Positions 2,348 to 39,848 of a stretch of DNA of 61,170 nt are shown in pieces. The DNA lies in IMG/VR virus record IMGVR_UViG_3300025131_008672, positions 1 through 61,170 of that record; one strand, written 5' to 3'. The notes under the pieces are model-generated. The model was not told the origin of the DNA. It searched no databases and was given only the letters and a program-made list of their open reading frames with translations. How positions within the stretch are numbered: position 1 is the stretch's first letter; every line of letters begins with the position of its first letter. This DNA is from a virus (lineage: Duplodnaviria > Caudoviricetes). A program made the translations under genes and the position numbers.

Positions 2348-3610
2348 CTATATATCGGTTTTGATCTTAAAAGTAAAACTACGATTTGCAGTTTTTTTAA
2401 CGGGCATCGCCAATTTAGCAATACCAATTAAATTTCTTTCATCGTCATAAACACCAACTCTAGAAATATACGTGGTCTTTTCAAAAGACCCAGTGGGGTC
2501 ATTATACGAGGAACTGACTACATTTTTAATCCTAATATTCTGATTTTCCATGTAGACAGTTGAACTCGTGGTAGCGTAACTCCCTGTGGAGTACTGACGG
2601 AAGGTGGGATTATTAGATTGATTGAGATCACCCTTGGGCGCCATGGCAAACATCGTAAGAGTTTGGGTAGTGCTGGTACCGCTCATGTCTAAAATCCACG
2701 TGGATTTTGGTGCGTGAATAGTGCCCGAGATCGATTGAGCAAAATATACCCATCTGGGGTTGTCGCCGGCGACCGTAGGTGGCCGGCCGGTCTGTAAATA
2801 TCCGTCCGTGTCCGATAGAGACCCCAAACGATAGGACGCGGTTAAAATTAAAAACCCCTCGCCATAGAGAACCAAGCCGATCGGGGAGCCTGTGCGAGAC
2901 CCTGTAGTTTCATACAGGACCCCATCCCTATTGGTATCTTGGGCTCTGCCAATCACAGAACCAGTATAGTAATATCGCAGATCTACAGTTCCTTTTTTAA
3001 TGGCAGAGCCATAAAATATAGTGGGAATACTCACTAAGCCCACCGCAACAGTATCTAAGTTGCGACTCACAGGGCCATCGGGGCCATAGGTAAAATTAGG
3101 ATTCAAATATTCATAACTATTAATAGTATTTTTAAGGCTTAAAAGATGAGACACCCATGCACGTTCGGCGACAGGAGTACTACTATATCGGGGAGTGGAG
3201 GCCCAATAATACTCTTTAGAGATTGAGGCCGTTAAAGGATATTCACCGAAGATTACGTCTCCATAATTCAGGGTGTTAAAACTAGCACCAGCAGTCGTGC
3301 GCATTCCGATTCTTGACCCATTTTTAACCACCCACGGATAAATTAATCCTTTATCTGGCGTCGTGGTGCCCTCTGGGCCAGATGGGCCTATTAATCGAAT
3401 CGAGGAGGCCGAATAGTGGCGATCTATATTGAGTTCGTATAAAGAAACATGACCTGCATTTGTTAGGCGAATTGGGTTAGAGTAAGCGCCGGAAAGATTT
3501 GGGGTATTATTATAAAAAACCGAACTGCTATAGATTATAAATTTAGCACTCGGATATGTTTTTAAAGTATTGATGTAGACATCATTACTGTTAAATTTGT
3601 AATAAGGCAT
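2348..3610 (-). CDS. Virion structural protein, baseplate/tail-fibre-attachment-like (paralog A)
   Basis: C-terminal YISRVGVYDDERNLIGIAKLAMPVKK...FTFKIKTDI resembles the C-terminal half of the P2 gpH N-terminal/DUF3751 domain; paralogous to 3629-4732 (shared IKKGT/VKKGS, GLVLY/GLLYY, SNNPT/SGNPT); end of tail operon. Confidence 0.65.
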   Translation of the reverse strand: MPYYKFNSNDVYINTLKTYPSAKFIIYSSSVFYNNTPNLSGAYSNPIRLTNAGHVSLYELNIDRHYSASSIRLIGPSGPEGTTTPDKGLIYPWVVKNGSRIGMRTTAGASFNTLNYGDVIFGEYPLTASISKEYYWASTPRYSSTPVAERAWVSHLLSLKNTINSYEYLNPNFTYGPDGPVSRNLDTVAVGLVSIPTIFYGSAIKKGTVDLRYYYTGSVIGRAQDTNRDGVLYETTGSRTGSPIGLVLYGEGFLILTASYRLGSLSDTDGYLQTGRPPTVAGDNPRWVYFAQSISGTIHAPKSTWILDMSGTSTTQTLTMFAMAPKGDLNQSNNPTFRQYSTGSYATTSSTVYMENQNIRIKNVVSSSYNDPTGSFEKTTYISRVGVYDDERNLIGIAKLAMPVKKTANRSFTFKIKTDI

Positions 3611-3628
3611 AGCATGACCACTTAACCA

Positions 3629-4732
3629 TTAATAATCTAAACGCACCCGTAACGTAAATTCTGTAGTGGGATCTTTTTTCAAGGGTTCGGACAACTTGGC
3701 CACAGCCAACATTTCATTATCTGCCGAATATAGGCCCACCGTTGTAGCATAGGTAACTGGTAAATCTTGTGCATTGTTCTTAACCACAAGCTTGCTGCTA
3801 CTCAAATATGTTGGGTTTCCTGAATAGTTAAAGTCGGTATTATTGATCCGACAGAAATACACCGAAGAGTTGAGTTCGGTCGTATTATTAAACGAAACAT
3901 TATACATCCGATGACGCAGGGCGTCGCAGTTAGCGTCAATTGTAGAGCCGGTTAAAACCGCTACCACACCATAATTTGCCGCGGAGGATCCGTCCTTCAA
4001 TTGGACTGCGCCTCCTACCAAAGGACCAAACACAGAAGCCGTAATAACTGCAATACCGGCCTGATAATAAAGGAGGCCGACCTTAGGAGTGCTTCCACTC
4101 AGGGGATCACCGGAGTTCGGTGCTGAATTTCCGCTTCCGGACGCGCGCAAAATACCATACTCGCCGGCCGGAGAATTAACTTTATAACTGGTGGAGCCAC
4201 TGCCATCTGTAATTAGGATGCGTTGCGTGAAACCTCCATCTGGGTATGTCTGTCCCACCCCAAGAGTGAGAGAGAAACTTCCCTTTTTAACTTCGTCTTT
4301 GGAAAGGAGGCGTGCAAAGTTAATGAAATAAGCTTCATCTATTTTATTGCCTCCCGTGAAATCCCCATCATCGTCAAAACGCCTGATCGCATTAGTCTCA
4401 TCAAACCCTACCAGAATCTGTGCCATCTGATTATAAATATTAATCTTCTTCGGCTGCATAGAATAATCAGCAGCAGAAGATTGTGATAAACTAGATTCGG
4501 CTGAGTACCCTGCTGTTAGATCAAAAATATGATTGGCGGACGAACTAAGGAAGGGGTAATCATATACCGACTCAAACATTCCATGACTATACGTCTTAAT
4601 ATTATACTCGGTGCCCGCCTTATTGGTGTACGTCCCTGATATAATCGTTCCTGTTATTGGAATTGCCTCGTGCAGCAAGTTTCTTGTTACAACCGAGTCT
4701 TTGTCATCAAATGTTTTAAACGAAGTAGCCAT
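3629..4732 (-). CDS. Virion structural protein, baseplate/tail-fibre-attachment-like (paralog B)
   Basis: C-terminal YATTVGLYSADNEMLAVAKLSEPLKK...FTLRVRLDY; paralog of 2348-3610. Confidence 0.65.
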   Translation of the reverse strand: MATSFKTFDDKDSVVTRNLLHEAIPITGTIISGTYTNKAGTEYNIKTYSHGMFESVYDYPFLSSSANHIFDLTAGYSAESSLSQSSAADYSMQPKKINIYNQMAQILVGFDETNAIRRFDDDGDFTGGNKIDEAYFINFARLLSKDEVKKGSFSLTLGVGQTYPDGGFTQRILITDGSGSTSYKVNSPAGEYGILRASGSGNSAPNSGDPLSGSTPKVGLLYYQAGIAVITASVFGPLVGGAVQLKDGSSAANYGVVAVLTGSTIDANCDALRHRMYNVSFNNTTELNSSVYFCRINNTDFNYSGNPTYLSSSKLVVKNNAQDLPVTYATTVGLYSADNEMLAVAKLSEPLKKDPTTEFTLRVRLDY

Positions 4733-4747
4733 CTTTTAATCCTTATC

Positions 4748-5695
4748 CTAAACTTTCTTCACAAATCTAATCGGAACATCTAGCGTATACCCTGTACTAA
4801 CCCCAGAAATCCTTATCGTAGAGTCAATAAATCGATAGGACGCTGCAGCGATCGTTTTAGAGCCCTGGCCCGTTATAGTTGTAGTACCCAGAGATCCTAG
4901 CTGTGTGAATAAATATGTACTTGTTTTGAGATCCAAACTAGATGCGATCTTAAACGACACCTTTGTGCCGCGGGGGCCTTGAATCTGAGATGCATCCCCT
5001 TCAGCGATGCGCGTGACCACGTCTGAATCGTCGTTGAGGGTAAATATATAGGTAGCTATGTTATCATCATCAATAGCCGTGGGCGTGAAACTTAAAGAAC
5101 TATTAGTATTAGCATTCGTAGTTGGAGAAGCAACAAAGCCCAAACGATTATCTATTTGCAAAAAGTATTGAGTTTCAAGTAAGTCTTGACTAATAATACT
5201 GTTGGACGACAATTCAAGTGTATCTAGGCCTTGATCGGCCCGAATAAGCTTGGAACCTTGTTGAGGAATATCACCGTTAAGCTGTCCATTTATCAGAGTA
5301 TTTGTCCCCGAGCCCTTAAGATCATTAACGGTAGTCTCATCTGCGAGCACTAAATAGTTATTGAATTGAGAATTAAGCGTGGAACTGTCTTCATTAAAGA
5401 GTTTAATGACCGGAAGATATAAGAGGTCGTTCCGGGCAATTGAAAGAAGTCGCGACTTCATGCTGGACATATTATTGGTAAACGCCTCCAAAACTGGGGT
5501 TTGAAGTATGTTAAGATCGTAGTACGCCGATCCACTCGTATTATTTTTGTCGTAGAGGCCGTAGTCGATTTCGTCATCTGCCAAAGCAAACTTTGAAACC
5601 TTAAAGCTCCCATTCCCCTCCGCTAGCCGCTTTCGGCCCAAGTCGGTTAAAACAGCGTCCAAAATAATGTCGCCAGAATTATCTAGAAATCCCAT
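4748..5695 (-). CDS. Virion structural protein
   Basis: N-terminal DAVLTDLGRKRLAEG...FALADDEIDY resembles the N-terminal half of the gpH/DUF3751 domain; similar start in 11405-12421; GAGGA SD. Confidence 0.6.
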   Translation of the reverse strand: MGFLDNSGDIILDAVLTDLGRKRLAEGNGSFKVSKFALADDEIDYGLYDKNNTSGSAYYDLNILQTPVLEAFTNNMSSMKSRLLSIARNDLLYLPVIKLFNEDSSTLNSQFNNYLVLADETTVNDLKGSGTNTLINGQLNGDIPQQGSKLIRADQGLDTLELSSNSIISQDLLETQYFLQIDNRLGFVASPTTNANTNSSLSFTPTAIDDDNIATYIFTLNDDSDVVTRIAEGDASQIQGPRGTKVSFKIASSLDLKTSTYLFTQLGSLGTTTITGQGSKTIAAASYRFIDSTIRISGVSTGYTLDVPIRFVKKV

Positions 5696-5710
5696 AGTAT
5701 CGTCCTCTTC

Positions 5711-5722
5711 ATATAAATAGTC
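5711..5722 (-). promoter_or_regulatory. Candidate late-promoter element (ACTATTTATAT on the coding strand)
   Basis: In a 46-nt intergenic gap just upstream of the SD of 4748-5695; CTATTTA recurs in the gap upstream of phoH; its reverse complement contains TATAAATA. Confidence 0.4.
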
Positions 5723-5741
5723 TTAAATATCATTATTCGCT

Positions 5742-8465: not shown

Positions 8466-8468
8466 CTT

Positions 8469-11405: not shown

Positions 11406-12421
11406 TAACAGGGCTCCTCGTCCTCGGATTCATAAATGTCCCGTGTAATAGGCTCTCGGACAGCGTTGGTCGCGACTTGGTGATGCGAGATATTGTGCTC
11501 TGCAAATATAAAATCTGGAATCTCCTCGTCTACAAATATATCCATATAATAACTCACATTCCCCGGAATATTTAACTCATTTTCAATAGGCCGGACTTGC
11601 CCAAAATTAGGATCCGTAGTCGGTGCATAAGCGAGTTGAACATATTTTCCGTCGGAGCCCGAATGGTACACCTCAATATCAAAATTTTCTTTTTCAAAAT
11701 CTGTGTTATGTTCGAGTATCTCTAGTAATATGTAGTTTTGTTCAATGCCGAGGGCCAAACTTGTTGCGGGAATTCCAAACACCTCTACCTGATCATCGTT
11801 TGATTCTAATTCCAGATCGTATACCCCGAAGTCTTCAGTTTCATTGTCGGGTTGAGCGTCAGGATCGACGGGGATTTCAAATTCACCCTCTCCCCAATCC
11901 ATAAAAAACATTTTATAATTCATATCAATATTAATTTGAGGAATATTTTCTATAAACCCCCCATCATCTAAATATGAAAGCGAAGAAGAGATTTGGGGGG
12001 TAGAAAGTAGTTGCACCGACCAAGCCGCATCATAAGGGGTATCCAATGAAGAGCGCCCCAAAGCATGTGCATTTATCTTTCCCTTATTTTCAAAAACTTC
12101 TACCTTACTAAAAACATCCACCTTATCAGCCGGATCAGAGTTAGAGCCGAGGAGGCCCGTAATCTGCTGAACAAATGAATTTACGCGAGTTTCTGCGCCG
12201 GTTCGGGTGGGAGACACTTTTATGCTTGGAGTTGAGCTTTGAATACGTCCCTCTATCATATTCTGATTTTCGGTGCTGCCAGCGGCTGACGCGTCATACA
12301 AGATGTCATCATCAAAAAAACAATAATAAGATGGCTTAAGACGACCCAAGGACAAAAGATATTTGCCATATTCAGTCAGCTGAAAGTCGAGAACTTCTTC
12401 TTTTTTATTAAAAAACGACAT
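11405..12421 (-). CDS. Virion structural protein, acidic, N-terminus paralogous to 4748-5695
   Basis: DFQLTEYGKYLLSLG...YCFFDDDILYD aligns with DAVLTDLGRKRLAEG...FALADDEIDYG. Confidence 0.55.
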   Translation of the reverse strand: MSFFNKKEEVLDFQLTEYGKYLLSLGRLKPSYYCFFDDDILYDASAAGSTENQNMIEGRIQSSTPSIKVSPTRTGAETRVNSFVQQITGLLGSNSDPADKVDVFSKVEVFENKGKINAHALGRSSLDTPYDAAWSVQLLSTPQISSSLSYLDDGGFIENIPQINIDMNYKMFFMDWGEGEFEIPVDPDAQPDNETEDFGVYDLELESNDDQVEVFGIPATSLALGIEQNYILLEILEHNTDFEKENFDIEVYHSGSDGKYVQLAYAPTTDPNFGQVRPIENELNIPGNVSYYMDIFVDEEIPDFIFAEHNISHHQVATNAVREPITRDIYESEDEEPC

Positions 12422-15400
12422 TACCTAGAGCTTCCTTCGGGTGGGTCGAGGGGGGCCGGGCCGCCGCGGCGTCGCCTACGGGATGGGCGTCGTCGTCGTC
12501 GCGGCCGCTCATCATCAGTGGGGCGCGTTGAGCGGCGCAAGCCTTCGGAGCCTTCCTGCACCTCCGGCGGGCCGCGGCGATTTGACGCATTAGGATTGGA
12601 CGGGATTGCTGCGGCGATGGTTGGCGGAGGACGGCCATCTAGATCGCCTTCATCATTCTCGGAAATTTCAAATTGCATATCTGCGGATGTCCATTGTGCT
12701 GTGGCATCAATCTTAGCTAGTTCAACTATTGAGAAATAGTCATAAGGCCAGTTATAGGTATAAGGGCCGCGCAGCTCCGGGACTATAGCACTAGTATCAT
12801 CAGTTACTAACGATCTTCTATATTTATTATACTCTCTTTGGGCTTTCTTTTTAACTTTGAACACGAGCCATTCAATGGTATCGCCTTCGGTGGCCATTAA
12901 GTTGAGAAGCTCCCGGTCTTCAACAACGACTTCTTGTTCGTCGATGAGTTCTTCGACGTCGGGAGGCAGATTTTGCCACATATCTGCTATATCCTGTTGG
13001 GTAATGTCGGCAGAGAATTCAAATACATATGTCAACACAGGATTAACTGTCTTATGTCGCGTGAAATCAAATTTAGGCGGAAATACATATTTGTCCACCG
13101 CAGCCTCTAGATTCCGATACATCAAAGTATTACGCATACGCCTGTTAACCTTAAAGAACTGTCTCTTATTCTTCTTAATTTTATAGGGCACCACCACGAT
13201 TGCCTCTTCAAGCTTGTTCTCTTTCTTAACGTCCCCAACTCGGAAAGAGATGCCCTTTTGAAACCCAACCACGTCGGCAAGAGAATTGATGATTCCTCCG
13301 TCATCTGTAATTTCAGCAAAAACCCCAGCTGTTGATGAAGTAATAACCGATCCATATTGGTGCCACATTCCGCGGGTTACTAACGACCCCGCTGAAGTTT
13401 GGGTACCTTCGAGACAGACGGAGGCTGGTGGCGAATCATAGGATGCGTTAGCAAAATTTAAAATGGGAGTTTCAAATTTGGATTGAATAAGCCAATAATT
13501 CTGTTGTGTATTGGTGCCGCGCGGGACCTCGCTAACCTTTTCGGTTAGATTAAAGCTGCTATCAAGTTGCATGCGAGGATCATTGAGGCGCCCCGCGGTA
13601 CGATCAGCAGGGATTATTGAGTCGAGGCCGGGAAGCGGGATAGCCAGGGAAGCACTTTGATTAATATAGGTGACCTCTCGCTGATATCGAATGCGTAAGT
13701 TGGCCAAAACCTCATCTACCGTTGGCACCCCATCATAAGATGCCGTATAAATAAGTTCCGCTATTGCTTCCCCGCTATAGTATGGAGGCAAGACGTGTGA
13801 GAACGTCGGGTAGACCTGTTTCTTGTAGGAGACGCCAAACTGGGCATATGTCGCTAGAGGAAACCCAAAAGCACTAGCCCTGCTATACATATCCCACTTC
13901 GAAGAATCCCTCGCATTCGCAGCGCTGCGGAAGAGCCGCAATGTGCTCCTATAAACCGATCCGCTCTTCACAGACTTAAACTGATCTTCACGATTAGACC
14001 GGATGCTGGTTATTCCATTGAGGAAAAAGTTTGAACTCTCACATAAGAAATTATCGATAGCATACCGATACCCTCCTTCTGGATCTTTTAGCTTAACTAT
14101 AATTTCCTCTCTTCGGCGCTTGGTCACATAATGCTCGGCGAACTGGATATTAGCGATTGTGGCGAACGTCGACGACCCGGAATCCATGGACTGCCCCGGT
14201 AAGGTGGCCGCAGTATCGAAGACTGCAGTATCAAAAAGCCGCGGTGCTGCGCGGAGGTAGGTATTAAACCCGGCGGAGGAAGCCCCCATTCCTAGTGTAG
14301 CTTGGGTATTTCCTATCTTCCGCAAATTATTATAATTAAAGAAAGTAGAAGGATCCCGGATAGCATCAAAAGGCACTTTAGCAATATGATACCCGTTGCT
14401 ATCGACTGATCCGGTCCCCATATCAAGTAGCCATTTATACCACAGAGTACCCTCGGGGTACCCGTTGGCAAAAGCAGTGTTGGACTGGCCTTCCCTTGGA
14501 AGGGCTCGGAAATTTACTGAGGACGTATTAAGAAGCACACAACTTCCCACCGCAATCCCTGATTTTATCGTGTTGAACAAAATCCCCGGGGACATCATGG
14601 GCTCCAACGCAATTCGGAACGCGTCGGCGCCGGAGTCCACGTCGGTGGCGCCTCGTAAAAATGAGCCTCCATACGACTGGGAAAATAATGTCGCTAGTTC
14701 TAGAGTTCGTTCGGCAGGATAAAAGCCCTTATAGGGAAGAAACTTGATAAGGCCGCTTGCCTTTAGCTTGATACGATCTCTGGTAATTTTTAAATCGCCG
14801 GCGCGCGTATCATTTAGATCTTCATCTATTGCAGCAAAATACTTCATAAAGTCTGTGTTGCTGTAAGTTCGGAAGAAGGTGCGCTGTGCGCTGGAAGCTG
14901 GAGATGCACCGGTGATTTCATACAAATTATTAATTTTGTCGGTAAGAAAGTCTCCATTATGTGTAGTATAATAGGTTTGTAGATGTTCACTTATTCGGAA
15001 CTCCGGAATAATTGAATGATCTTTGCCCACTAAACGAATTTGATCAGCCCATGTGGAATAATTTTGATATGGGTTTTTACCTGATTGTTCTGCGGCCTGC
15101 CACCGTACATCTCCAGCCAACACTTCAAAGCTATATCCACTTATTGACGTCCGTCCCGTAGGCAGACGCCACGCATATGTGGGCGCTGCCACTTGTGTAC
15201 CAATCTGCGCGGGGAGTTTCGAAGAACATCCATTGGTATCATATGAGGCAGAGAATCTAGAGTAGGAGTTCATCAGTTCCCCGGCGCCGTCGGTCGGTCT
15301 TACCGAAGATGTCGTAGTAAAATTAAGGTGAGCGTCAAGAGGCCAGATACTAGAGGTGGTGATAGTCTGCCCCATGGTTCCCACACGGCCTCCAAGCGCT

Positions 15401-18400
15401 GATCGCTTTGCCCGGCTGTCATTCCAGATATTATCAATAGTATATGCAGTGCGGCCGCGTACGGTGTTCCGGTACATGTTGCGTGCCGAAGGATACATAG
15501 TTTCACTATATTCAACAACTGTACTTAAGTCGCTCTCAACCACAAAGTCCCTAACTGTGTCAAAAACCATAGGCTTGTCGAGATCAATTTTGAGACCCAA
15601 CCGATTATTAAGCCCCTCACTATTGAAATATTCTAAATTATTCCCGTAGGGAACCCGAAGGGTGATATTATTATCGAAGCGCGTCATACTGGCGAAGGGA
15701 GCGGGAGGTGGTGTTGTATTGTCCTCCAAATAAAATTGCACAGTACCACAACGACTATTAATGGGGGGCTCATAATAGAGGGCTGCTGTGTTAGGACGCG
15801 TTGGAGAAGTAAACCCTATTACTTTATTATTTATAATGTCAGGAATGGCATGTGGTGGCCGCACCTGACCCAAAATATTTTGCTGACGCAGTCCCCGAGC
15901 CACCGGGGAGTCCCCCGCTCTTATCTGTTTCCATGTGGGATAACCATAAGGACCATTGCGATTCAATAGAAGCGCATTTAAATAATCATTAGTATTTGTC
16001 AGAGTGGGCGCGTCCCAATAATGGTCTGAATTAATATAGTTGCTCGAATATGCTGGGCTCGTATTGTCGTTTAGCGCAATCTGTGAGATTGTGGTATTTG
16101 TTCCGGTGCCACTATCAGGAATGCCTGTGGAGGTCTCGCCCGAACGATTGACAATAGAGGTATCTGTATCTCCCAAATCACTGGAGAACCTGAACCAAGT
16201 CAACAGTTCATCTAACAAAGGGGTCACGCCGGCCATATTTACCCTGCCACCATTATTGTAAAGCATTTTTACTTCATTAGCACTCAATTCGCGACCCCAA
16301 ATAGCTGCGTTAGCCATTTGACCATCGAAGCCGCGGTTCGCATCGTCGTTATTTCCCAGGACACAAGTATCTGTGGCAATAATCACAGGATCGGTGACAA
16401 CAGATGTGGATGTATTCTGGACGCCCTGGAGATAAATGCGCATTGTGCCACCGGACCCCCCAGCATATGTAAAAACTGCATGCGTCCACCTATTGAAAGG
16501 AACAGTGCCGACGCCCGAATTGAGTGTCGTGTTGCCCAAGGCCGTCACGATCTTGAAATTGACCCTCGTCGTACTTAGGTAAGCCATTCGACGATCGGAG
16601 GCATCACCAAATTCACAAAGACGCGAATCGGCGGATCCATAAGAAAGGGGATAAATCCACATTGAAACAGAAAAGGCTTTGGCAGCCGCTCCCGAACCAC
16701 CAATCAAATCATTCCAAGTATTGGCTGGCCCGATGTCCAACCTCGAGTTGGTGCCATTAAACGTCATGACATCCAAGGGTAGAGTGGGGTCAGCAAAGCC
16801 CAAGGTCCGACCGTGAACATTCACATCATCGAGAATCTGCGATCGCAGCCCAACGAAATCACCCTCACCATAGGCCACCGATGCAGTCACTAGTTGGTAA
16901 AGGGCTGACGCGGTCACCGAAGCAGGGGAGTCTAGAGTTAGAATAGACCGACCAGCAGCCATCGACGAAGAAATCCATGCATATTGGCCTTCAGACTGGG
17001 GGATGGCGTGCTGGACAAACAGATTGTCATAAATCGAGGCCGTTATATTGGCATGGGTAGCCTCTGTGGGCCTTCTCTTGCGGTTTCGATTGGTTTTGTG
17101 CCACGATGGAACTGTCACATAAGTTAGCTCCGGCACAGAACCATAGGCGGCGTCTGAGCCAAAGGGGCCGCAGTGCAAACTGGCGCGCTGATCGAGGCCG
17201 CGATTCTTATTAATCTGATCCACCACCGTGATTGTCCGGGCAGCAACCGGATCAACAGAGGCTGAGCCCGACAGTCCGTAATCGATAATTGAGAGATTAT
17301 GGTATGGGGCTGCATTATAAACTGAAAGTTCTTCGTGTGCTGGGTTCATATACCCCAACGACATGACTTCATAACCACTCCCAGCATAACGGTTAACAAT
17401 AATAGTCTGATTAGAATCCGATCCTGTACGCTGGGGTATAAGGTAGTCTAGGTTGCCTCCACAGTTCGCGGTGCCATGGCCATAGGATGCCGTGGTTTGG
17501 CCTCCACGAATATTAAAGTTCGTGGTGGCGTCGTTCGCAAAAGCTCTAGCGCTGGATGACAACCTCAAGACACTAATAACAGCCTTCGGAGAGTCCGGGG
17601 CAGTCGCCTCGGCCCACCGGAGGGTGCCTCCGAAATTACCATCATTCTTCCAAGGTATGTGGTCCTGGCCCACGTTTGGAGGACGGTACCACGCTGCCAA
17701 TTGGTATCCCCCGGAGACGGCAGCAATGGCAGCATCGGTAACTAGAGTGCCCGTTAAACTAGCCGCTCCTTGGTGTGTCCAGTCGAGAGGAAGATTACGG
17801 AAGCTACAGTTAGTCCGAGTACCGGTGGACCCAGTCCTCGTCGTTGTAGCATATAAGGCGTCCCTAAAAGTGTCGCTAGAAATTAACTTTTGGGGCCCAT
17901 AGGAGGCACTCATGTGTTTGGTTGACCAAAATGATATTTCTGCGATTGAGGCGGAGTGGAATGATTCGGCATATATCCACGCGCCGTCCCACGGCATAAA
18001 GATGGCGCCGACCTGATCATCACTAGAGCCGCTCATGGCTGCCATGACCGTGGACACGTAGGATCCTTGTCGGTAATAGGATGCGGAGCGCACCGTCCCA
18101 TTAACATAAATGTTATGATTGCTGGCAAAGAAATCAGTTGTCTTCACTTGACTTCCTAGATCGCATACACCAAATAAAATATGATACCAGCCCGGACCGG
18201 TAAAAATATCATTTGCTGATTCCCAATATGTATTTTCTGGGTTGGTACCAGCACCACGCATTATCTCGATACACAAGGTTGGGCGCGTCGATCCGGATTT
18301 TAAGAAGAGGCGTCTAGGAGTAAAGTTCATCCCTCCGTCATAACCACCCCAGGAGACTATAACGCGCTCTTCTCCGTCACCAGAATAGCCGGCTGCATCC

Positions 18401-21400
18401 CACGCGGGCCCGGCAAGCTGACACGTGTTTTTAGAGGCAGAAAGCCAAACTCCCATCGTAAAGGCCTTAGCTTGGAGCATGGCGGGGGTCGCAGATATCG
18501 CCGATTCATCAAAGATATACGTATTATTGTTGGCTAAGCCATCATTTTTCATATAAAGAGTGCTTTTAAGATTATAGGTGCTTGTTTCAGTATCGGCAGC
18601 CGGAAGATAAAGAGGGAAACGTCCACGAGTAGCCAGTGTTTCGGGATAAAGAGCAAAGTTAAATGACTGATCATTAAAGAATGGATCATTCTTCATGCGC
18701 GAATTCGAATTGACAACTTGATAGTTCTTCTCATAGTTACCAATAACTGTGGATCCAGTCCGCATTCGAATGTTACGAATATTTACCGGCCGCTTAGTTG
18801 TTTCATCTCGGAACCTAAATGCCGTGGGAAGGGAAGTGTCCTCACTCCCATGAGGAGCATTGGGGGGAAGGATTGCTAGAGACTTGGGTGCGACGCCCAC
18901 AACATTCTGGGTTCCTCCATTATCAAAATTAATACGGAACCCTTCCCCGCGAGTTTTATTACTGTCGGTTCCCTTATTAAGCGCTGTGTGGCGATAATAG
19001 CGCCCCCCTACATATTTTTCAGGAAACGGACCCTGCATAGGGATGTCAGTATCGATCACAAAATCATTATGTAGATTAGTGAGAAGGACGCCAGAGGCGT
19101 AATTGGCCACAACTTCAGCATTGTAGCCGCCAACAACAGAAGAACTATACAAACTAAATGGCGCATGGCGTGGTCCGGAGATCGACCCAGCAGTCGCGCT
19201 TCCCGATAAATCAAAACCCAAACGTTGCTTAAAGGGAGGATAAAAAACATCTGGACTCTCGATTAGTTGTTCTACAGTGCTTCCCGAGGAAACCAATATA
19301 TTTTTTAAGGCAGCTGACCCGGCGATCGAACCTCCCCAAGCCGCGGCCGCGCGGAAAACATAATTAACTACTGAATTGTGGTGACGAGCCACACCACCGG
19401 GGGCGGTTGCGCCCTCTATAGAGAACTTAGCAGGACTCAAGGTGCGGCGGTCGAAGGTTTTTTTGACCGACGCAAAGGCCGTCGCGCGGTTTGAAGCGGG
19501 TGTGCGCTCTTCCATATAGCGGTGCCAGTATATATTTTTTTGTTCAGGCGGATCGCCCCATACAGTAGCGGGGACAGGAGCGTGGAAAAGGGCCCACGGG
19601 CGTATTTGTGATGTATTAGATGATCCAATTTGACGCTTGGTAAAAGCTGTATTTGTGAAAAAGGCACTTCCTTGTGGATACTCGTCTGGAGAACCTTGCG
19701 CAGAACTGTCTCCACCCATAAAACCCTGAAGGGTTCCCGTGATATCGGTAGCTCCGTTTTTCTCTAAGAATGGAAACTTTCTCTGATACTTAGGCCGCTC
19801 TAGAATATGATTTTCTATAACGGTGCGCACGTTTTCTGCCACATCTGCCGAAGCAGGGACAAGTTGACGCAACATCACAGAAAGAGAGGCATCTAGCCAT
19901 TTATAAAACTCATAAAACTTATCAAAATCCAGTTCTTTATTCTGAACTTTTTCAAAAAACTTCTGACGCATAAAGTTGAGGTCTTTATATTCTGGGCGCC
20001 ACTGGTTAACGGGGTCACCAATGAGATTATGAAAGTCTCGTAACCCACCGAAATAATTAACCATTTCTTCCGAAATTACCTGATACATGCTTTTTTCAAA
20101 AGCAAAGAAATAGTTGGTAGGACGGCTGTTGGGTCCGAAGACATTCTGATCTAGGGCTCCCAGGACCGTTACCATATCGTGGGAATATAGATTTTCAGGT
20201 AAATTTAGTTTGGAAGAAACTATAAAATCTTTATCGATAGGAGTTGTAGAGGAAACTGCAAAGTTGCTCCCACTGGCGGTATACTGTCGATTTAAAATAG
20301 TACTAAGTGCATCGAAACTTGAATTAATTCGATTACGATAGGCTGACCCCGAACTTAAATCTGCAACCTGAAATTGGCCCTGCGCATTCGAGCCCGTATT
20401 TGTAAGGAACTCCCAATTAAATACGAGGGTATCAAATTTAGTCACATCTCCATAGGATGAACTGGGCTTAAAGGGATACGCATAATAATGAGGATGGAGG
20501 GCGCCGTAACTCTCTGTGTCAAGAGCGTGAGCACCTAGAGCCGAATCCTGTAAATAATCGAGCCAGAATCGGCAGGCATTTACTTTAACATCGGATGTTT
20601 GAAGAACGCTGCCCGTAAAATTCACACGATGGGCGCCTACGTACACACGACGCGAACTTGTCATAAAGGTAACTGGTACACTATCCACCGTCTTTGCTGC
20701 AGTAAACGTGTTGACTATTTCCCCGGCGTCGGCCTCAACACCATGAAGCTCTATTGTATAGCTCCCCGTAGTGCGCAGAGGATCCAAATCCGCGCCCTCG
20801 ACAAACGCGGAAAGAGGATATTTTTCTGGTTTAATCCTTACGGCGAGATTCCAGCGACTATTGTCATAAACCTCTTCAAATAAGGGAGAAGTTAAATAAG
20901 GAACTTTACCGTTGGTGGAGCTGGTTAGAACAAAACGAACACTAGTGGAGTTTATCTCGTCACGAACTGCATAAACTTGAAAATTAACACGATCGGTGGA
21001 GGGCCACGTAGGATTCGTTCCGGGGTTGCGTTTTCCTACCCCGTGTATCCCGAAAAGAGAAGAACTAATAGTATCAGTGTTAACATAAGCTACACTTGCC
21101 TGATCGCTCTTCAGAGGAAAAAGTATTTCGCTTTCTAGCGTTATCGCGTGGCCGTCGAGGAGTGCCGCACTTGATGTAATAAACCCAACCGAAGCTGTAT
21201 TGGTCGTATCAACAGCGTTACACACCACGCCGGCCTTGTTGGCACCTGTATTAAAGTCTACAAAGCGATCTGCCACCACGATATTGCGGCGATCGTTGCG
21301 GAGTTCGAACTCCACATTATTGGCATACATATTGAATTTAATAAGCTCATCATCAACGCCGAAACATCTAATAAGATTGCGAAAACTTTTCTCCGTTCCC

Positions 21401-23193
21401 TTGGACTTATAAATATAAGAAAGATTATTATAGATATTCTTGTAAATAACATTCTTTATCTCATGCAGAGACTTTTCATATATACGTTTTTCACTACGAT
21501 CGGCCAGCTTTTCTATAACATCAGCCTCGATAAAGAGATCTGGAGCAACAAACCCATGAGATTGCAGAAGATGTTCCGCAAAAGGCAGCGGCTTATCGCT
21601 CCCACTTACATATGATATTTCTTTAAGACGACTTAGGTCACTGATTTGCATATGCAGCGTATCAAAATAGCTGCCCAGTATTTGAGTCAGCTTCTTCAGT
21701 TCGCCGGTTCCGTCGGCGTCGTCATCAATAACCCAGGACGGCATCGTATGGTAAATGGCGGCATTATTATTAACATCATAGTTAGAACCACTTAATTGCA
21801 GCCCATCAAGGAGGCTCACAACCGAAGGATGCTTGGGATATATAATGGGATCCTTAAATTCTTTAATGGCCGCGTTTGACAACACGATGGCAGATCCAGT
21901 GTTTCGAGAGTTTGAAGTATAACCAGTCCACGAACCATTAGAAAAGCGACCAGAAAAATCTAGTACCGTACTATCCGTAGTGCTATTTCCTGTGATGCCT
22001 TCGTTGAACTTAAAATAAACACCCAAATCTAAATTGGCACTTACTTCGGTCTGGATGAAGGGTGCGGGATCCGTATTAACGCCGCCGCCCACTTGAGTAA
22101 ACCAGTGACGCCCAATCTGTTGAGAGGTGCGTTGAGTCTTCCAGAAACGAAATTCATCTAAAGAAGCAGATAATTTGCCGGCATAGGCAGGCGTCGTCAG
22201 CTTACGCGGGGCTGTTACGAGGGCACCGAGTGTGGCGCGGAGATCATAACCCGATATATCGCTTAATGATCCCATTCCGCTAGCGGAGAGCTGTGTTTCT
22301 CTACGGAACTGCCCATCCATATAAAAGCGCGTAGTAACGTTTGTGTCTTGCTTCAGTGTGACCGCATAATGATGCCAGTTTCCATCAGCAACAGAGCCCG
22401 TAGTCGTGACGGAGGTGGGAGCGATGCTTGCCTCTGAGAAGCCGGTAGATCCAGAATATAGGGTGAGCAAGAAGGGCTGGGCGCCCAAAGGGAGACCGTC
22501 GCGTCGAGCGGCGCCTGTTAATTCCAATCGAAGACGTGCATAATTTGTAGCAGAAGAGGTTACTCCATTCCATATATCCAGAATAACTTCTTTCTCGGTG
22601 TTGGCAACGTTAAAAGCATCCTTCTTTAGCCAAAATTCGACCGATGCGCCTTCACTATTAACATTGAGGGCCAAGTTCGATCCTCGGTTCTTCGAGGGTT
22701 CATAATAATTGGATCCAGTGAACTGGGTCCGTGTAGGAGTGGCGCCGAGGGGGTTTCCCGAAGGGCCCCCTTTGACCGCAACATATTCTGGAAGCGATGA
22801 AGCTCCATAACCATTAGGGTATGTAGTGGGCGTCCCCCACCCATCAGCCGAAAAAATAATATAGCCATTAGTGCGGGGATATTTAGTGTCAAAAATATGA
22901 AGATCTATGTAGCTAGATTCATTCTCCCATTCTAGACGCTCTTGTAACGACCCATCATAGGGATAAGTCTGGTAAATGCGCTTGATAGCCTGGGTATAAT
23001 ATTCTTCCGCACTTCCGTAGCGCGCAAAATTAGCCGGCTTAGATAGATCGATTTGAGGAAGGTAGCGCTCCTCTTTGATAATATCTTGTTCATGATAGCC
23101 TACAGACTCAACCTGATCTGCGATCTCCGCGGCCGATTTATTCGAGAGGGCTTGAGTATCTGCTCCTATCTCAAAGTATTTCTTAAGACTCAT
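12421..23193 (-). CDS. Giant baseplate wedge-like protein (gp7/gpI-like) with multiple LamG/concanavalin-like domains, 3590 aa
   Basis: IYKSKGTEKSFRNLIRCFG resembles the KGT motif of P2 gpI/T4 gp7-type wedge proteins; LamG signatures SVEFWLK...WHHYAVT...LDEFRFW (about 22650-22130) and FSVSMWIYP...WTHAVFTY...FDGQMANAAIWGRELSANEV (about 16770-16190); follows gp25 and gp6 genes. Confidence 0.7.
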   Translation of the reverse strand: MSLKKYFEIGADTQALSNKSAAEIADQVESVGYHEQDIIKEERYLPQIDLSKPANFARYGSAEEYYTQAIKRIYQTYPYDGSLQERLEWENESSYIDLHIFDTKYPRTNGYIIFSADGWGTPTTYPNGYGASSLPEYVAVKGGPSGNPLGATPTRTQFTGSNYYEPSKNRGSNLALNVNSEGASVEFWLKKDAFNVANTEKEVILDIWNGVTSSATNYARLRLELTGAARRDGLPLGAQPFLLTLYSGSTGFSEASIAPTSVTTTGSVADGNWHHYAVTLKQDTNVTTRFYMDGQFRRETQLSASGMGSLSDISGYDLRATLGALVTAPRKLTTPAYAGKLSASLDEFRFWKTQRTSQQIGRHWFTQVGGGVNTDPAPFIQTEVSANLDLGVYFKFNEGITGNSTTDSTVLDFSGRFSNGSWTGYTSNSRNTGSAIVLSNAAIKEFKDPIIYPKHPSVVSLLDGLQLSGSNYDVNNNAAIYHTMPSWVIDDDADGTGELKKLTQILGSYFDTLHMQISDLSRLKEISYVSGSDKPLPFAEHLLQSHGFVAPDLFIEADVIEKLADRSEKRIYEKSLHEIKNVIYKNIYNNLSYIYKSKGTEKSFRNLIRCFGVDDELIKFNMYANNVEFELRNDRRNIVVADRFVDFNTGANKAGVVCNAVDTTNTASVGFITSSAALLDGHAITLESEILFPLKSDQASVAYVNTDTISSSLFGIHGVGKRNPGTNPTWPSTDRVNFQVYAVRDEINSTSVRFVLTSSTNGKVPYLTSPLFEEVYDNSRWNLAVRIKPEKYPLSAFVEGADLDPLRTTGSYTIELHGVEADAGEIVNTFTAAKTVDSVPVTFMTSSRRVYVGAHRVNFTGSVLQTSDVKVNACRFWLDYLQDSALGAHALDTESYGALHPHYYAYPFKPSSSYGDVTKFDTLVFNWEFLTNTGSNAQGQFQVADLSSGSAYRNRINSSFDALSTILNRQYTASGSNFAVSSTTPIDKDFIVSSKLNLPENLYSHDMVTVLGALDQNVFGPNSRPTNYFFAFEKSMYQVISEEMVNYFGGLRDFHNLIGDPVNQWRPEYKDLNFMRQKFFEKVQNKELDFDKFYEFYKWLDASLSVMLRQLVPASADVAENVRTVIENHILERPKYQRKFPFLEKNGATDITGTLQGFMGGDSSAQGSPDEYPQGSAFFTNTAFTKRQIGSSNTSQIRPWALFHAPVPATVWGDPPEQKNIYWHRYMEERTPASNRATAFASVKKTFDRRTLSPAKFSIEGATAPGGVARHHNSVVNYVFRAAAAWGGSIAGSAALKNILVSSGSTVEQLIESPDVFYPPFKQRLGFDLSGSATAGSISGPRHAPFSLYSSSVVGGYNAEVVANYASGVLLTNLHNDFVIDTDIPMQGPFPEKYVGGRYYRHTALNKGTDSNKTRGEGFRINFDNGGTQNVVGVAPKSLAILPPNAPHGSEDTSLPTAFRFRDETTKRPVNIRNIRMRTGSTVIGNYEKNYQVVNSNSRMKNDPFFNDQSFNFALYPETLATRGRFPLYLPAADTETSTYNLKSTLYMKNDGLANNNTYIFDESAISATPAMLQAKAFTMGVWLSASKNTCQLAGPAWDAAGYSGDGEERVIVSWGGYDGGMNFTPRRLFLKSGSTRPTLCIEIMRGAGTNPENTYWESANDIFTGPGWYHILFGVCDLGSQVKTTDFFASNHNIYVNGTVRSASYYRQGSYVSTVMAAMSGSSDDQVGAIFMPWDGAWIYAESFHSASIAEISFWSTKHMSASYGPQKLISSDTFRDALYATTTRTGSTGTRTNCSFRNLPLDWTHQGAASLTGTLVTDAAIAAVSGGYQLAAWYRPPNVGQDHIPWKNDGNFGGTLRWAEATAPDSPKAVISVLRLSSSARAFANDATTNFNIRGGQTTASYGHGTANCGGNLDYLIPQRTGSDSNQTIIVNRYAGSGYEVMSLGYMNPAHEELSVYNAAPYHNLSIIDYGLSGSASVDPVAARTITVVDQINKNRGLDQRASLHCGPFGSDAAYGSVPELTYVTVPSWHKTNRNRKRRPTEATHANITASIYDNLFVQHAIPQSEGQYAWISSSMAAGRSILTLDSPASVTASALYQLVTASVAYGEGDFVGLRSQILDDVNVHGRTLGFADPTLPLDVMTFNGTNSRLDIGPANTWNDLIGGSGAAAKAFSVSMWIYPLSYGSADSRLCEFGDASDRRMAYLSTTRVNFKIVTALGNTTLNSGVGTVPFNRWTHAVFTYAGGSGGTMRIYLQGVQNTSTSVVTDPVIIATDTCVLGNNDDANRGFDGQMANAAIWGRELSANEVKMLYNNGGRVNMAGVTPLLDELLTWFRFSSDLGDTDTSIVNRSGETSTGIPDSGTGTNTTISQIALNDNTSPAYSSNYINSDHYWDAPTLTNTNDYLNALLLNRNGPYGYPTWKQIRAGDSPVARGLRQQNILGQVRPPHAIPDIINNKVIGFTSPTRPNTAALYYEPPINSRCGTVQFYLEDNTTPPPAPFASMTRFDNNITLRVPYGNNLEYFNSEGLNNRLGLKIDLDKPMVFDTVRDFVVESDLSTVVEYSETMYPSARNMYRNTVRGRTAYTIDNIWNDSRAKRSALGGRVGTMGQTITTSSIWPLDAHLNFTTTSSVRPTDGAGELMNSYSRFSASYDTNGCSSKLPAQIGTQVAAPTYAWRLPTGRTSISGYSFEVLAGDVRWQAAEQSGKNPYQNYSTWADQIRLVGKDHSIIPEFRISEHLQTYYTTHNGDFLTDKINNLYEITGASPASSAQRTFFRTYSNTDFMKYFAAIDEDLNDTRAGDLKITRDRIKLKASGLIKFLPYKGFYPAERTLELATLFSQSYGGSFLRGATDVDSGADAFRIALEPMMSPGILFNTIKSGIAVGSCVLLNTSSVNFRALPREGQSNTAFANGYPEGTLWYKWLLDMGTGSVDSNGYHIAKVPFDAIRDPSTFFNYNNLRKIGNTQATLGMGASSAGFNTYLRAAPRLFDTAVFDTAATLPGQSMDSGSSTFATIANIQFAEHYVTKRRREEIIVKLKDPEGGYRYAIDNFLCESSNFFLNGITSIRSNREDQFKSVKSGSVYRSTLRLFRSAANARDSSKWDMYSRASAFGFPLATYAQFGVSYKKQVYPTFSHVLPPYYSGEAIAELIYTASYDGVPTVDEVLANLRIRYQREVTYINQSASLAIPLPGLDSIIPADRTAGRLNDPRMQLDSSFNLTEKVSEVPRGTNTQQNYWLIQSKFETPILNFANASYDSPPASVCLEGTQTSAGSLVTRGMWHQYGSVITSSTAGVFAEITDDGGIINSLADVVGFQKGISFRVGDVKKENKLEEAIVVVPYKIKKNKRQFFKVNRRMRNTLMYRNLEAAVDKYVFPPKFDFTRHKTVNPVLTYVFEFSADITQQDIADMWQNLPPDVEELIDEQEVVVEDRELLNLMATEGDTIEWLVFKVKKKAQREYNKYRRSLVTDDTSAIVPELRGPYTYNWPYDYFSIVELAKIDATAQWTSADMQFEISENDEGDLDGRPPPTIAAAIPSNPNASNRRGPPEVQEGSEGLRRSTRPTDDERPRRRRRPSRRRRRGGPAPLDPPEGSSR

Positions 23194-23203
23194 AGCATCC
23201 TAA

Positions 23204-24703
23204 TTATTCTTCAACTCTAAATTTGAAGGTTTGTGGCTGTTCTTGCCAGTCTCCTATACTATCATTATAGTAGGATAATCCAACGGCATACATGTAGCCT
23301 GACTCCAAAAGGGCCATGTCCAGATCAAAATAGTTACCGTCCTTGTCATAGGACAAATAGGTACTATAGCGAGATCCCGTTCCATATGGTATAGCGTTAT
23401 AGTTATCTGTTACTCTACGGATATTATAGGAAGCACTCGGTATAATTTGAGTTGGACTATTCGTCGTAGAAACAACGTATAATGTGGGGCTCCAATTTTT
23501 ATCTCTTACGAAAAAGCGGAATCGAGCTTTATCTTGCCGTGAATATTTCTTCTTAAGGTTGGTGCAGCTTGTGACTCGATTAAAAGTGGGGGCAGCCTCA
23601 TATGTGGGCATCGCTTGAGGATAAAAGGAGCCCGTAAAATATTGGAGGGATGAGCCGCTATGCCAGACATCGTAAACCTTCTGTAGGGGTGTGGCTGCCG
23701 AAGTAAGCGCTACCTGGCATGTGTAAATACCTGTGCTAACATTGCTCGCTGTGGCATTAATTATGCCATTCTGTATTAGAAGTTTTGCGTCTGTTGGTGT
23801 AGTGGCGGACCCAGAATAAAAAGATACACGAATACTCCCCGTACCAACGTTGGGAATATTAACAAGACGTCCACGAATATAATTGTAAAGGTAAAGACGA
23901 TTTAAATTATCTTCTGCTGGGGCTAACGAACTAGAATAGAAAAAGTTTTCTCTATCATCTGAAAGGCGCGAATCCCAGCGAGCTTCCAGAACGGGACGCT
24001 TAAAGAAGAATTCAGTAGAGCGTGCGAAGAACATCTTCGTATAATAAGACTGTGTGGCGCCTACCGTATTTTGAATAACACTTCCGCTATCAGTTCCAAG
24101 AGAACTGGAGAAGTATGCTTCTTGGCTTGCGGTAAGTCGAATTCCTACCCCGTAATTCGTTTGCGTCCCATTAATCCACCGCTCCACCAGGTTTGTAACA
24201 TTTAATTCGATGTTTTCAAATCCTTGTGGGAAATTAATATTATAGTTGTTCACCGTTCTATAGTCGCCCCCTACGGTGGTCCAGGAGGACGTACTGTTGG
24301 GTTTAATCCAATTAGCGCTTCCCAAATCTTGGTAGTTGGCCAGGTCCAGGCCGGTACCTTCGCTCCATGGGCGAGAAACCGGCGCCACAATAAGATTAAA
24401 ATTTTGAGGCAATGTATAGGGAGTCCGAGCATTATGCATCTTAAGAAAAAAGGAAACACTTCCACTGGCCCCCAATCGGCCGGCGGTGCGGTCTGCGGAA
24501 ATCTGTGTCACAGGAAAGTCGATCAGAATACGAGATAACTCCTGCGATTGTCCGTTGGAGCCTGAATCTTGCCCATATATAGAAAATACTTCTAGCGCGT
24601 CCGCATACCCCATATTAGAACCAGTACCGCGGGTCGTCAGATTGCTTTCAAATGCGCTCGCAATTGTAGTATCAGCGCTAGCAGTATAACGAAGAATAGC
24701 CAT
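23204..24703 (-). CDS. DNRLRE-domain-like structural protein, 499 aa
   Basis: DTTI...SRILIDF...WSEGTG...LNVTNLVERWINGTQTNYGVGI...RPVLE follows the DNRLRE domain pattern; sits between gp6-like and giant wedge genes. Confidence 0.55.
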   Translation of the reverse strand: MAILRYTASADTTIASAFESNLTTRGTGSNMGYADALEVFSIYGQDSGSNGQSQELSRILIDFPVTQISADRTAGRLGASGSVSFFLKMHNARTPYTLPQNFNLIVAPVSRPWSEGTGLDLANYQDLGSANWIKPNSTSSWTTVGGDYRTVNNYNINFPQGFENIELNVTNLVERWINGTQTNYGVGIRLTASQEAYFSSSLGTDSGSVIQNTVGATQSYYTKMFFARSTEFFFKRPVLEARWDSRLSDDRENFFYSSSLAPAEDNLNRLYLYNYIRGRLVNIPNVGTGSIRVSFYSGSATTPTDAKLLIQNGIINATASNVSTGIYTCQVALTSAATPLQKVYDVWHSGSSLQYFTGSFYPQAMPTYEAAPTFNRVTSCTNLKKKYSRQDKARFRFFVRDKNWSPTLYVVSTTNSPTQIIPSASYNIRRVTDNYNAIPYGTGSRYSTYLSYDKDGNYFDLDMALLESGYMYAVGLSYYNDSIGDWQEQPQTFKFRVEE

Positions 24704-36157: not shown

Positions 36158-36470
36158 TGTTCGTATCCTCCTCTGATCCTTCGTTTAAAAGATCGAATAA
36201 TTGTTCTTTATCATCAGATGTTAGGCCGAATTGGTGAGATGTTTGTTTTTGAAGGAGAGCCGCTAGCTTAACCAACTGTTCGTTGGATCGTTGTAGATTC
36301 TCTATATACTTCGCGGCGATGGGTCCCAATTCGCGTCGCGAAGAATCTGATAACTTCATATCATTAAGTGCATCCATTAGCAACGACTTTGCCATCGCCC
36401 GGTCCTCGCGGATATTGGTGGTCGTTTCTTCTATATACTCATCTAAATTTAGATTTCGCCGTTTTCCCAT
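36150..36470 (-). CDS. Hypothetical helical protein, 106 aa
   Basis: AAGGAAAA-ATG; overlaps sigma stop and peptidase start. Confidence 0.65.
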   Translation of the reverse strand: MGKRRNLNLDEYIEETTTNIREDRAMAKSLLMDALNDMKLSDSSRRELGPIAAKYIENLQRSNEQLVKLAALLQKQTSHQFGLTSDDKEQLFDLLNEGSEEDTNSG

Positions 36471-37880: not shown

Positions 37881-37881
37881 C

Positions 37882-38103: not shown

Positions 38104-38113
38104 TTTTTTCTCC

Positions 38114-39836: not shown

Positions 39837-39848
39837 ATTATTACCTCC

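Follow-up and report, generated by a model that had tools for sequence, protein, structure and literature searches.

In Gram-positive cocci, two adjacent GT-B proteins, GtfA and GtfB, O-glycosylate serine in S-A-S-like contexts in the cytoplasm, and the glycan is then variably extended. Virus-encoded cytoplasmic enzymes of the chlorovirus PBCV-1 glycosylate the virus's own capsid protein at unusual acceptor sites, through N-linkages and in a eukaryotic host. Acceptor motifs of three residues are exemplified by the general O-glycosylation sequon of the Bacteroidetes, D-[S/T]-[A/I/L/V/M/T], and by N-X-S/T. Here, we analyzed another tripeptide, [S/T]-[G/A/S]-S, in the tail proteins encoded by a 61,170-base stretch of DNA from a virus of the Caudoviricetes (IMG/VR record IMGVR_UViG_3300025131_008672; completeness estimate, 39%), referred to below as the window. 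A sequence-only reading of the window had claimed that this tripeptide is selectively enriched in four tail or baseplate proteins, as a protein-level recognition site in surface turns. We found that the excess is real and that across related phages it is present or absent together with an island of sugar genes. We suggest, with a probability of about 0.5, that hydrophobic-[S/T]-[G/A/S]-S-hydrophobic is a candidate O-glycosylation acceptor site (sequon) on virion tail proteins, namely the baseplate periphery, the giant protein, the fibre-like proteins and, in relatives, the sheath.

In our literature search, mycobacteriophage virion glycosylation was the sole phage case found, and neither a phage sequon nor a glycosylated tail sheath or baseplate was found. 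PMC12619734 (citing Freeman et al. 2023, Cell Host Microbe) describes mycobacteriophage glycosyltransferases that presumably modify structural proteins of the phage itself, with shielding as the proposed role, and places the glycans on the C-terminal ends of capsid and tail-tube subunits. As in the mycobacteriophages, phage-encoded glycosyltransferases lie near the structural module of the window, on the same strand. In contrast, the candidate sites of the window and its relatives are tripeptides scattered across baseplate, giant, fibre-like and sheath proteins rather than C-terminal tails, and they accompany a large, hypervariable set of sugar genes in marine myoviruses that are uncultured and known here from sequence alone. 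The host recognition cluster of pelagimyophages and cyanomyophages provides a second comparison, since these large marine T4-like phages, like the window, carry a hypervariable island of glycosyltransferase and sugar-nucleotide genes beside their tail genes; the authors of PMC7029224 propose that these genes alter the host O-chain and so block co-infection. However, the window's island co-occurs with a serine motif in the phage's own tail proteins, suggesting the virion as target, and the host O-chain reading does not predict such a motif.

All genes of the window are encoded on the minus strand. In order of transcription they comprise a PIN-PhoH fusion, a small metallopeptidase-like gene, a PD-(D/E)XK nuclease, two glycosyltransferases, a sugar island of about 16 kb and a tail/baseplate module with a gp6-like wedge. 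The motif-bearing proteins, and the wedge protein that served as internal control and tree marker, are as follows.

23204 to 24703, minus strand: 499-residue virion protein with 16 sites and several beta-sandwich domains (FN3/Ig/CBM-like), directly downstream of the gp6-like wedge gene
12421 to 23193, minus strand: 3590-residue giant tail/baseplate protein with 51 sites and a Laminin_G_3 match at residues 2171-2309
3629 to 4732, minus strand: 367-residue tail protein with 7 sites, a paralogue of the 420-residue protein over the C-terminal ~150-180 residues (E 8e-7)
2348 to 3610, minus strand: 420-residue tail protein with 11 sites
24703 to 26505, minus strand: gp6-like baseplate wedge of 600 residues, with a PHROG baseplate wedge match

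We counted [ST][GAS]S by regular expression in 41 of the 43 open reading frames (ORFs) of at least 150 residues, omitting the antisense nested ORF 35096-35773(+) and the 5'-open ORF 60593-61168; throughout, a count is set against the mean of composition-preserving shuffles. The 499-residue protein carries 16 sites against 2.9 (z 8.0), the 420-residue protein 11 against 2.5 (z 5.5), the 367-residue protein 7 against 2.2 (z 3.4, p 0.0045) and the giant protein 51 against 14.6 (z 10.1), which amounts to 85 against 21.8 for the four pooled (z 13.8). The by-eye counts of the sequence-only reading (16, 11, 7 and more than 45) were thus reproduced, and its chance estimate of about 3 for the 499-residue protein agrees with the shuffle mean. 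Its figures for the neighbours held for the wedge (0 sites against 1.7) and for the proteins of 978, 907, 338 and 315 residues (2, 2, 2 and 1 sites), but not for the 1619-residue protein, which has 6 sites (against 3.2, nonsignificant) where 1 to 3 had been stated. Selectivity for tail and baseplate proteins was likewise upheld in that the four proteins stand out, but it is not strict, as two small island enzymes (38952-39836 and 44494-45198) each carry 3 sites against 0.4 (p 0.0035 and 0.0075, marginal among 41 tests). These data confirm that the motif excess is real.

The excess could in principle be an artefact of local Ser/Gly/Thr-rich patches, as the four proteins are rich in serine (9.2 to 11.2%) and general S/T/G clustering occurs in the tail proteins of pelagiphage HTVC008M. 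However, when shuffling was confined to windows of 10, 20 or 40 residues, the excess persisted at p ≤0.001 for three proteins and p 0.005 to 0.007 for the 367-residue protein; for the 499-residue protein, the 10-residue-window shuffle gave 3.0 expected sites against the 16 observed. The serine-rich 315- and 978-residue neighbours are unenriched, and other arrangements of these residue classes show far less enrichment or none: [GAS][ST]S occurs 27 times against 22.1, and S[GAS][ST] 56 times against 22.1, the latter being largely S[GAS]S instances that the motif also counts. Residue specificity and local shuffles therefore largely rule out a compositional origin, which we consider very improbable.

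The residue rule is tight. In the four proteins, the middle residue may be glycine ([ST]GS, 40 against 6.7), alanine ([ST]AS, 24 against 6.8) or serine ([ST]SS, 21 against 8.6), and no enrichment was seen with threonine ([ST]TS, 7 against 7.4), asparagine ([ST]NS, 4 against 5.7), aspartate, valine or proline. Threonine at the third position was not enriched either ([ST][GAS]T, 23 against 19.0). In an unbiased tripeptide scan of the pooled orthologue sets, in which shared ancestry inflates the counts, TGS, SGS, SSS, TAS and SAS ranked at the top among frequent tripeptides. The claim that sites often follow a hydrophobic or aromatic residue was borne out, with a hydrophobic residue before 44 of the 85 sites (background 31%, p 6e-5) and also after 40 of the 85 (background 31%, p 0.0016); the 27 sites in other ORFs are free of this bias (9 before, 8 after). 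Codons at the sites are varied, the most frequent 9-mer being seen twice, and BLASTP found no internal repeats in the giant protein and, among the four proteins, the 367- and 420-residue proteins as the only paralogues. The varied codons and the absence of protein repeats rule out a DNA repeat or codon artefact, as the sequence-only reading had argued in calling this a protein-level feature. Unlike the long low-complexity repeats that are the substrates of GtfA and GtfB, the window's sites are dispersed in folded beta domains, and no low-complexity serine-rich repeat substrate was found by BLASTP. Known sequons were ruled out as well: although these too span three residues, neither D-[ST]-[AILVMT] (16 against 18.0) nor N-X-[ST] (55 against 54.9) is enriched in the four proteins.

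Searches of Pfam and PHROGs gave no match for the 499-, 420- or 367-residue proteins, and the giant protein (Pfam only) matched Laminin_G_3 alone; for the 499-residue protein, tblastn against cultured phages and a profile search of PDB sequences also gave no matches. Its AlphaFold2 model is confident (predicted local distance difference test score, pLDDT, 90.5), all-beta and multi-domain, and Foldseek returned generic FN3/Ig/CBM-type beta-sandwich matches only. The model of the 420-residue protein is poor (pLDDT 63.5), and the ESM Atlas returned only unnamed viral clusters. The motif is not a feature of the LamG domain: the giant protein's longest run free of sites, at residues 2103-2613 (a gap of 510 residues, chance about 0.02), includes this domain. 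For the claim that the sites lie in surface turns, the secondary-structure context is weak evidence. The model of the 499-residue protein assigns coil to 32 of the 48 motif residues, compared with 250 of all 499 residues, and closeness to a strand end is not clearly above background (12 of 16 sites within 2 residues, against 316 of 495 residues overall). The location of sites mostly in loops and at strand ends would fit a structural or physicochemical surface feature, in which a small polar serine turn aids the folding, hydration or packing of beta-rich tail proteins independently of any sugar. We regard this alternative as unlikely, and a turn preference does not readily explain the exclusion of threonine at position 3 and of residues other than G, A and S at position 2.

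The motif is maintained across large protein families. Homologues of the 499-residue protein, most of them from marine metagenomes, number more than 4,000 in 90% clusters and 1,147 when represented at 50% identity. Close homologues (n=120) carry a mean of 14.5 sites against 3.3 expected, distant representatives (n=149) carry 12.5 against 3.6, and the variant with threonine in third position shows no excess in the family. Homologues of the 420-residue protein (n=120) average 10.5 sites against 2.8, and orthologues of the 367-residue protein in motif-rich genomes have 6 to 10 against 2.2 to 2.5. In contrast, homologues of the neighbouring glycosyltransferase (n=120) are at chance level (mean of 0.44 against 0.48), and the gp6-like wedge has 0 to 4 sites in the 39 relatives examined. 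We also compared motif density with the turnover of site positions among orthologues, and density is kept while core positions are conserved and other sites turn over. In an alignment of 70 sequences of the 499-residue family, 103 columns hold a site in at least one sequence, and three sites are near fixed (TGS442 in 57, SSS257 in 54 and TGS27 in 48 of the 70); TGS at residue 373 of the 420-residue family is present in all 40 aligned sequences. Motif residues are moderately more conserved than other S/T residues at position 1 (0.83 against 0.61, p 0.002) and position 3 (0.67 against 0.51, p 0.047). Such position-fixed sites are also compatible with a structural role of the turn.

A relative that is 91% complete (G001) shows enrichment in the same four orthologues and in proteins beyond the window's edge. 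Extended tail sheaths (959 to 1075 residues, in G001 and three other motif-rich relatives) carry 11 to 14 sites against 4.4 to 4.9, and 50 of 51 sheath sites fall within residues 100-850, upstream of the C-terminal Phage_sheath_1C domain. In near-complete relatives, the enriched proteins are tail, baseplate and sheath proteins and a few unidentified proteins of the structural region, and none is identified as capsid. As a separate observation, the sheaths at L198:7973-11200, L214:931-3891 and L227:4146-7229 (959-1075 residues) are ~300 to 400 residues longer than T4 gp18, and the added length sits upstream of the conserved C-terminal sheath domain.

The genes that define the sugar locus are the following.

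55105 to 56355, minus strand: conserved GT4-type glycosyltransferase of 416 residues, first of the pair (Glycos_transf_1, E 2e-13)
53822 to 55105, minus strand: second conserved glycosyltransferase, 427 residues, with a weak Glycos_transf_1 match
37700 to 53807, minus strand: hypervariable sugar island of about 16 kb, with gene functions read from Pfam matches
36449 to 37147, minus strand: conserved 232-residue gene at the far border of the island slot, recognized by synteny

The order PhoH, peptidase-like gene, PD-(D/E)XK nuclease, GT4, second glycosyltransferase, slot, small ORFs, 232-residue gene and tail genes is conserved in all 11 genomes compared (10 whole records and the window). The pair and the island are found 5 to 30 kb ahead of the tail genes and are transcribed in the same direction. 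In the six motif-rich genomes, the slot between the glycosyltransferase pair and the 232-residue gene holds 7 to 22 kb of variable sugar genes; in the five motif-poor genomes the same slot is empty, at about 0.8 kb. We extended the measurement to 50 additional long records, of which 35 held both flanking genes (the 232-residue gene is present in 35/35). The slot spans 6.4 to 23 kb in 32 of these, all with enriched orthologues of the 499-residue protein (ratios of 2.4 to 5.6), and about 0.83 kb in the other three, whose orthologues have 0 sites against 0.8, 2 against 1.4 and 4 against 1.4 (the last, ambiguous). In total, 38 records are rich with an island, 8 are poor without one and none is discordant, the contrast representing one evolutionary event. 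The proposal that the tripeptide is a protein-level recognition site gains new support from the joint presence or absence of motif and sugar island; we consider it plausible, given the counts and a single concerted loss, with which two distant lineages described below agree.

The motif-poor orthologues of the 499-residue protein have the same length and fold with 0 to 2 sites (4 against 1.4 in one record, L100). Twelve positions hold a site in half or more of 38 rich orthologues; at many of them the poor clade has mostly charged or polar residues (D/E/K), with triplets such as TDA, EGQ, KSN, SDE, SEE, KAY and IGT in place of former sites. The fold does without the motif, because same-fold orthologues in one clade have so few sites. 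Other proteins change in concert. Among the 39 of 77 loci that have the full upstream flank, seven have a poor 499-residue orthologue, and the giant protein there has 2 sites against 6.2, 17 against 12.3, 18 against 13.2, 18 against 11.5, 9 against 9.5, 16 against 14.4 and 16 against 12.4 (ratios of 0.3 to 1.6). In the other 32 loci the 499-residue orthologue is enriched (ratios of about 2.4 to 6), and the giant protein is enriched 2- to 5-fold where listed (31 of 32). The 499-residue and giant proteins are unrelated yet change together, suggesting that a common factor acts on all of them, and the concerted change of the 499-residue, giant, 420/367-residue and sheath proteins argues against a purely structural role. 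Maintenance of the motif depends on something outside the motif proteins, and the only gene block that tracks it is the sugar island beside the glycosyltransferase pair. In the giant protein of poor record G006, the motif is if anything depleted (3 against 7.9).

Nine gene clusters occur in at least three rich and in none of the poor whole genomes; seven lie in the island, and one is the following gene beyond it.

59351 to 59905, minus strand: cytidylyltransferase-like gene (CTP_transf_like match), in 4/6 motif-rich and 0/5 motif-poor whole records

Specificity and coordination call for a partner without naming one, and the motif could be read by another partner than a glycosylation system: an enzyme for a different serine modification (phosphorylation, acylation, or a phosphoglycerol- or cytidine monophosphate [CMP]-linked group), an assembly chaperone, or a host surface polymer. 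The tracking cytidylyltransferase-like gene and the methyl- and sulfotransferases of the island would fit such a role. However, the presence/absence analysis turned up neither a kinase nor an acyltransferase that follows the motif, the seven island clusters that do follow it are sugar enzymes wherever they are annotated by Pfam, and the sulfotransferases, which belong to the carbohydrate type (Sulfotransfer_2), were found by BLAST in the window's island alone among six islands compared. A host-binding role also fits poorly with sites spread alike over sheath, baseplate and giant protein. We therefore judge another partner improbable.

The content of the island is consistent with glycan synthesis. 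It encodes two UDP-glucose dehydrogenase-like enzymes, three epimerase/dehydratases and an NAD_synthase-like gene; Methyltransf_11 and FkbM methyltransferases and two Sulfotransfer_2 proteins; three glycosyltransferases with Pfam matches (Glyco_trans_1_2, GT15-like and GT2), plus a 281-residue GT-B-like protein without one; and several proteins of unknown function. If the sequon proposal is right, the phage's own cytoplasmic glycosyltransferases would place a sugar on the motif serine during infection. The GT4 and second glycosyltransferase (53.8-56.4 kb) would be the best candidates for recognizing the site and for starting or building the protein-linked glycan, because no island gene is universal. 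The adjacent island would provide activated sugars and additional transferases for lengthening and decorating the glycan, so that different strains would bear different coats on the same protein sites. In the window's phage the glycan would probably be acidic and decorated, with uronic acid, methyl and sulfate groups, given the UDP-glucose dehydrogenase-like enzymes, epimerase/dehydratases, methyltransferases and carbohydrate-type sulfotransferases of its island. The analysis shows that the motif is in excess, specific in sequence, conserved across families, dispensable for the fold and coupled in its occurrence to the island; that a glycan is attached, which serine would bear it, which enzyme would act and to what end (shielding, solubility or host recognition) are inferred.

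The nearest solved relatives of the GT4 protein are BshA and then chlorovirus B736L (E 5e-7 over about 170 residues). As with PBCV-1, we propose a virus-built glycan on the virus's own structural protein, but the similarity of GT4 to B736L is remote. Searches of solved structures with the pair returned BshA, B736L, sucrose-phosphate synthase-like and other GT4 enzymes, and neither GtfA nor GtfB. Unlike GtfB, the second glycosyltransferase looks catalytic from its sequence, in that many of its orthologues carry PF00534; forms of 650 to 690 residues carry PF00535. It always adjoins the GT4 gene at the island edge. Neither GT4 itself, which is present in the motif-poor clade, nor the 281-residue GT-B-like gene, found in 4/6 rich genomes even with a hidden Markov model, can be the gene that decides motif presence throughout.

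Several details of this region were noted in passing. Many relatives (homologues P0302-P0381 of 53822-55105) have the second glycosyltransferase fused to a C-terminal GT2 domain (650-690 residues). The 281-residue gene, or a 530-residue form of it, adjoins the second glycosyltransferase in four compared genomes. The gene content of the slot (window 37700-53807; loci L090-L231) is nearly wholly different between related phages over 6.4 to 23 kb, a variability reminiscent of serotype islands for O-antigen or capsule. The first UDP-glucose dehydrogenase-like ORF (38114-39097) has a TTG start, overlaps the epimerase ORF 38952-39836 by 146 bases and matches only model positions 62-180 of the N-terminal NAD-binding domain, and so may be truncated or start later.

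The same signature recurs in distant cultured phages. By gp6 (about 30% identity), the nearest are Flavobacterium phage vB_FspM_immuto and Microcystis phage Mel-JY01, and the GT4 family is found in 7 of 50,697 phage records: four of immuto, Mel-JY01, RM378 and one uncultured phage. Immuto has the nuclease, two glycosyltransferases and then an island of about 8 kb; in Mel-JY01 this module recurs, but the island is smaller. The tail proteins of immuto carry 115 sites against 41.0 ([ST]GS, 61 against 13.1; [ST][GAS]T, 31 against 33.7), and those of Mel-JY01 carry 70 against 20.6 ([ST]GS, 45 against 5.9; threonine third, 14 against 13.0). Nontail proteins of the two phages are unenriched (5 against 5.5, 4 against 4.1 and 7 against 3.7). 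Recurrence of the signature with the glycosyltransferase module at such divergence counts against a sugar-independent turn. So do module-free controls, with 38 sites against 39.7 in 28 structural proteins of T4, none enriched, and 57 against 41.9 in 16 tail proteins of cyanophage S-H34. That the motif is a generic property of the fold is contradicted by T4 and by the same-fold orthologues with 0 to 2 sites.

DNA glycosylation as the job of the island is unlikely, at least in immuto, because a report on its DNA (bioRxiv 10.1101/2023.04.13.536721) lists dA, dC, dT and fdPreQ1 only as the nucleosides detected by liquid chromatography-mass spectrometry. Separately, the immuto "tail spike" (L232:35287-38448; 1053 residues, 16.7% Ser) has 60 sites, many spaced 5 to 9 residues apart (e.g., residues 437-515), in an apparently periodic fibrous region with the motif on each turn. 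The GT4 orthologue of Mel-JY01 (L237:5442-6933) is annotated as two ORFs of 190 and 302 residues, possibly reflecting a split, a frameshift or a sequencing error.

Several results weigh against a glycosylation sequon, and some of them favor the structural alternative. On the gp6 tree, the eight island-less, motif-poor records form a single clade nested among rich lineages (Shimodaira-Hasegawa-like approximate likelihood ratio test [SH-aLRT] support, 94), so the joint loss is one event; the structural alternative would treat it as coincidental, motif and island having been lost in a common ancestor, perhaps on a change of host or habitat that also made surfaces more acidic. In the orthologous tail proteins of the poor records G006-G010 (loci L176-L194 and L205-L212), composition has shifted: D/E stand at 7.1/6.9% against 6.0/4.6%, and Ser, Gly and Ala are reduced. 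The gain in acidic residues would, speculatively, also fit charge compensation after the loss of an acidic glycan. The tree of the 499-residue family permits two to three changes, but the trait itself shapes that sequence. The poor clade is moreover impure, as [ST]GS is still about 2-fold enriched in it, and record G007 has a sheath with 8 sites against 3.4 and a 420-like protein with 7 against 2.1. Both glycosyltransferases are intact in the poor clade, so the pair alone cannot explain motif retention, and jackhmmer found no island family common to the six rich genomes except a merged cluster dominated by NAD-dependent epimerase/dehydratases, so that no sequon-specific enzyme is identified. 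The strand-end contrast in the 499-residue model is weak, and the published interpretation of such islands (PMC7029224) is host O-chain modification.

Two outgroup phages add to these difficulties. In Rhodothermus phage RM378, whose glycosyltransferase pair has no island beside it, enrichment is nonetheless seen in 2 of 65 ORFs (8 against 1.7 and 6 against 1.2), an intermediate state; its homologue of the 367/420-residue proteins has 1 site against 1.2. In HTVC008M, where the window's GT4 family has no match at E ≤1e-10, 12 tail proteins have 97 sites against 56.0 and the threonine-third variant is also raised (94 against 75), a milder and unspecific S/T/G clustering. Some baseline excess thus exists in marine phage tail proteins; it is about 1- to 2-fold, and the state described here is 3- to 6-fold and serine specific. 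We also note that RM378 carries a UDP-galactopyranose mutase-like gene (L240:13985-15136) about 2 kb from the 367/420-residue homologue.

Should glycans prove to be attached at the motif, no sequon for protein glycosylation in phages would have been described before it. We tentatively extend the proposal, as a possibility to which we lean less, to abundant uncultured marine myoviruses and their cultured Flavobacterium and Microcystis relatives. These phages may run a general O-glycosylation of their own, with a tripeptide sequon and island-encoded, strain-specific glycans over the entire outside of the tail (the outer domains of the sheath, the periphery of the baseplate, the giant protein and the fibres), and its reach would cover the more than 1,100 clusters at 50% identity of one tail protein. 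The "lipopolysaccharide (LPS)-like" islands of large marine phages would then be virion serotype islands rather than host-surface tools. If true, tail-surface glycosylation would be widespread in the ocean, the islands would be reread as genes for a variable particle coat instead of host O-antigen modification, and there would be consequences for host range, for the stickiness and decay of particles in seawater and for recognition of phages by bacteria and grazers. Cultured phages that share the module and the signature, vB_FspM_immuto and Mel-JY01, make the hypothesis directly testable.

Two genes at the upstream end of the locus are also conserved. The PIN domain fused to PhoH (57998-59314, 438 residues) shares 57 to 91% identity with its counterparts in all 10 relatives compared. 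The 205-residue protein encoded at 57131-57748 has subthreshold zinc-metallopeptidase matches (Peptidase_M90, 24.8 bits; ATLF, 19.2 bits), and its gene adjoins the nuclease in all relatives.

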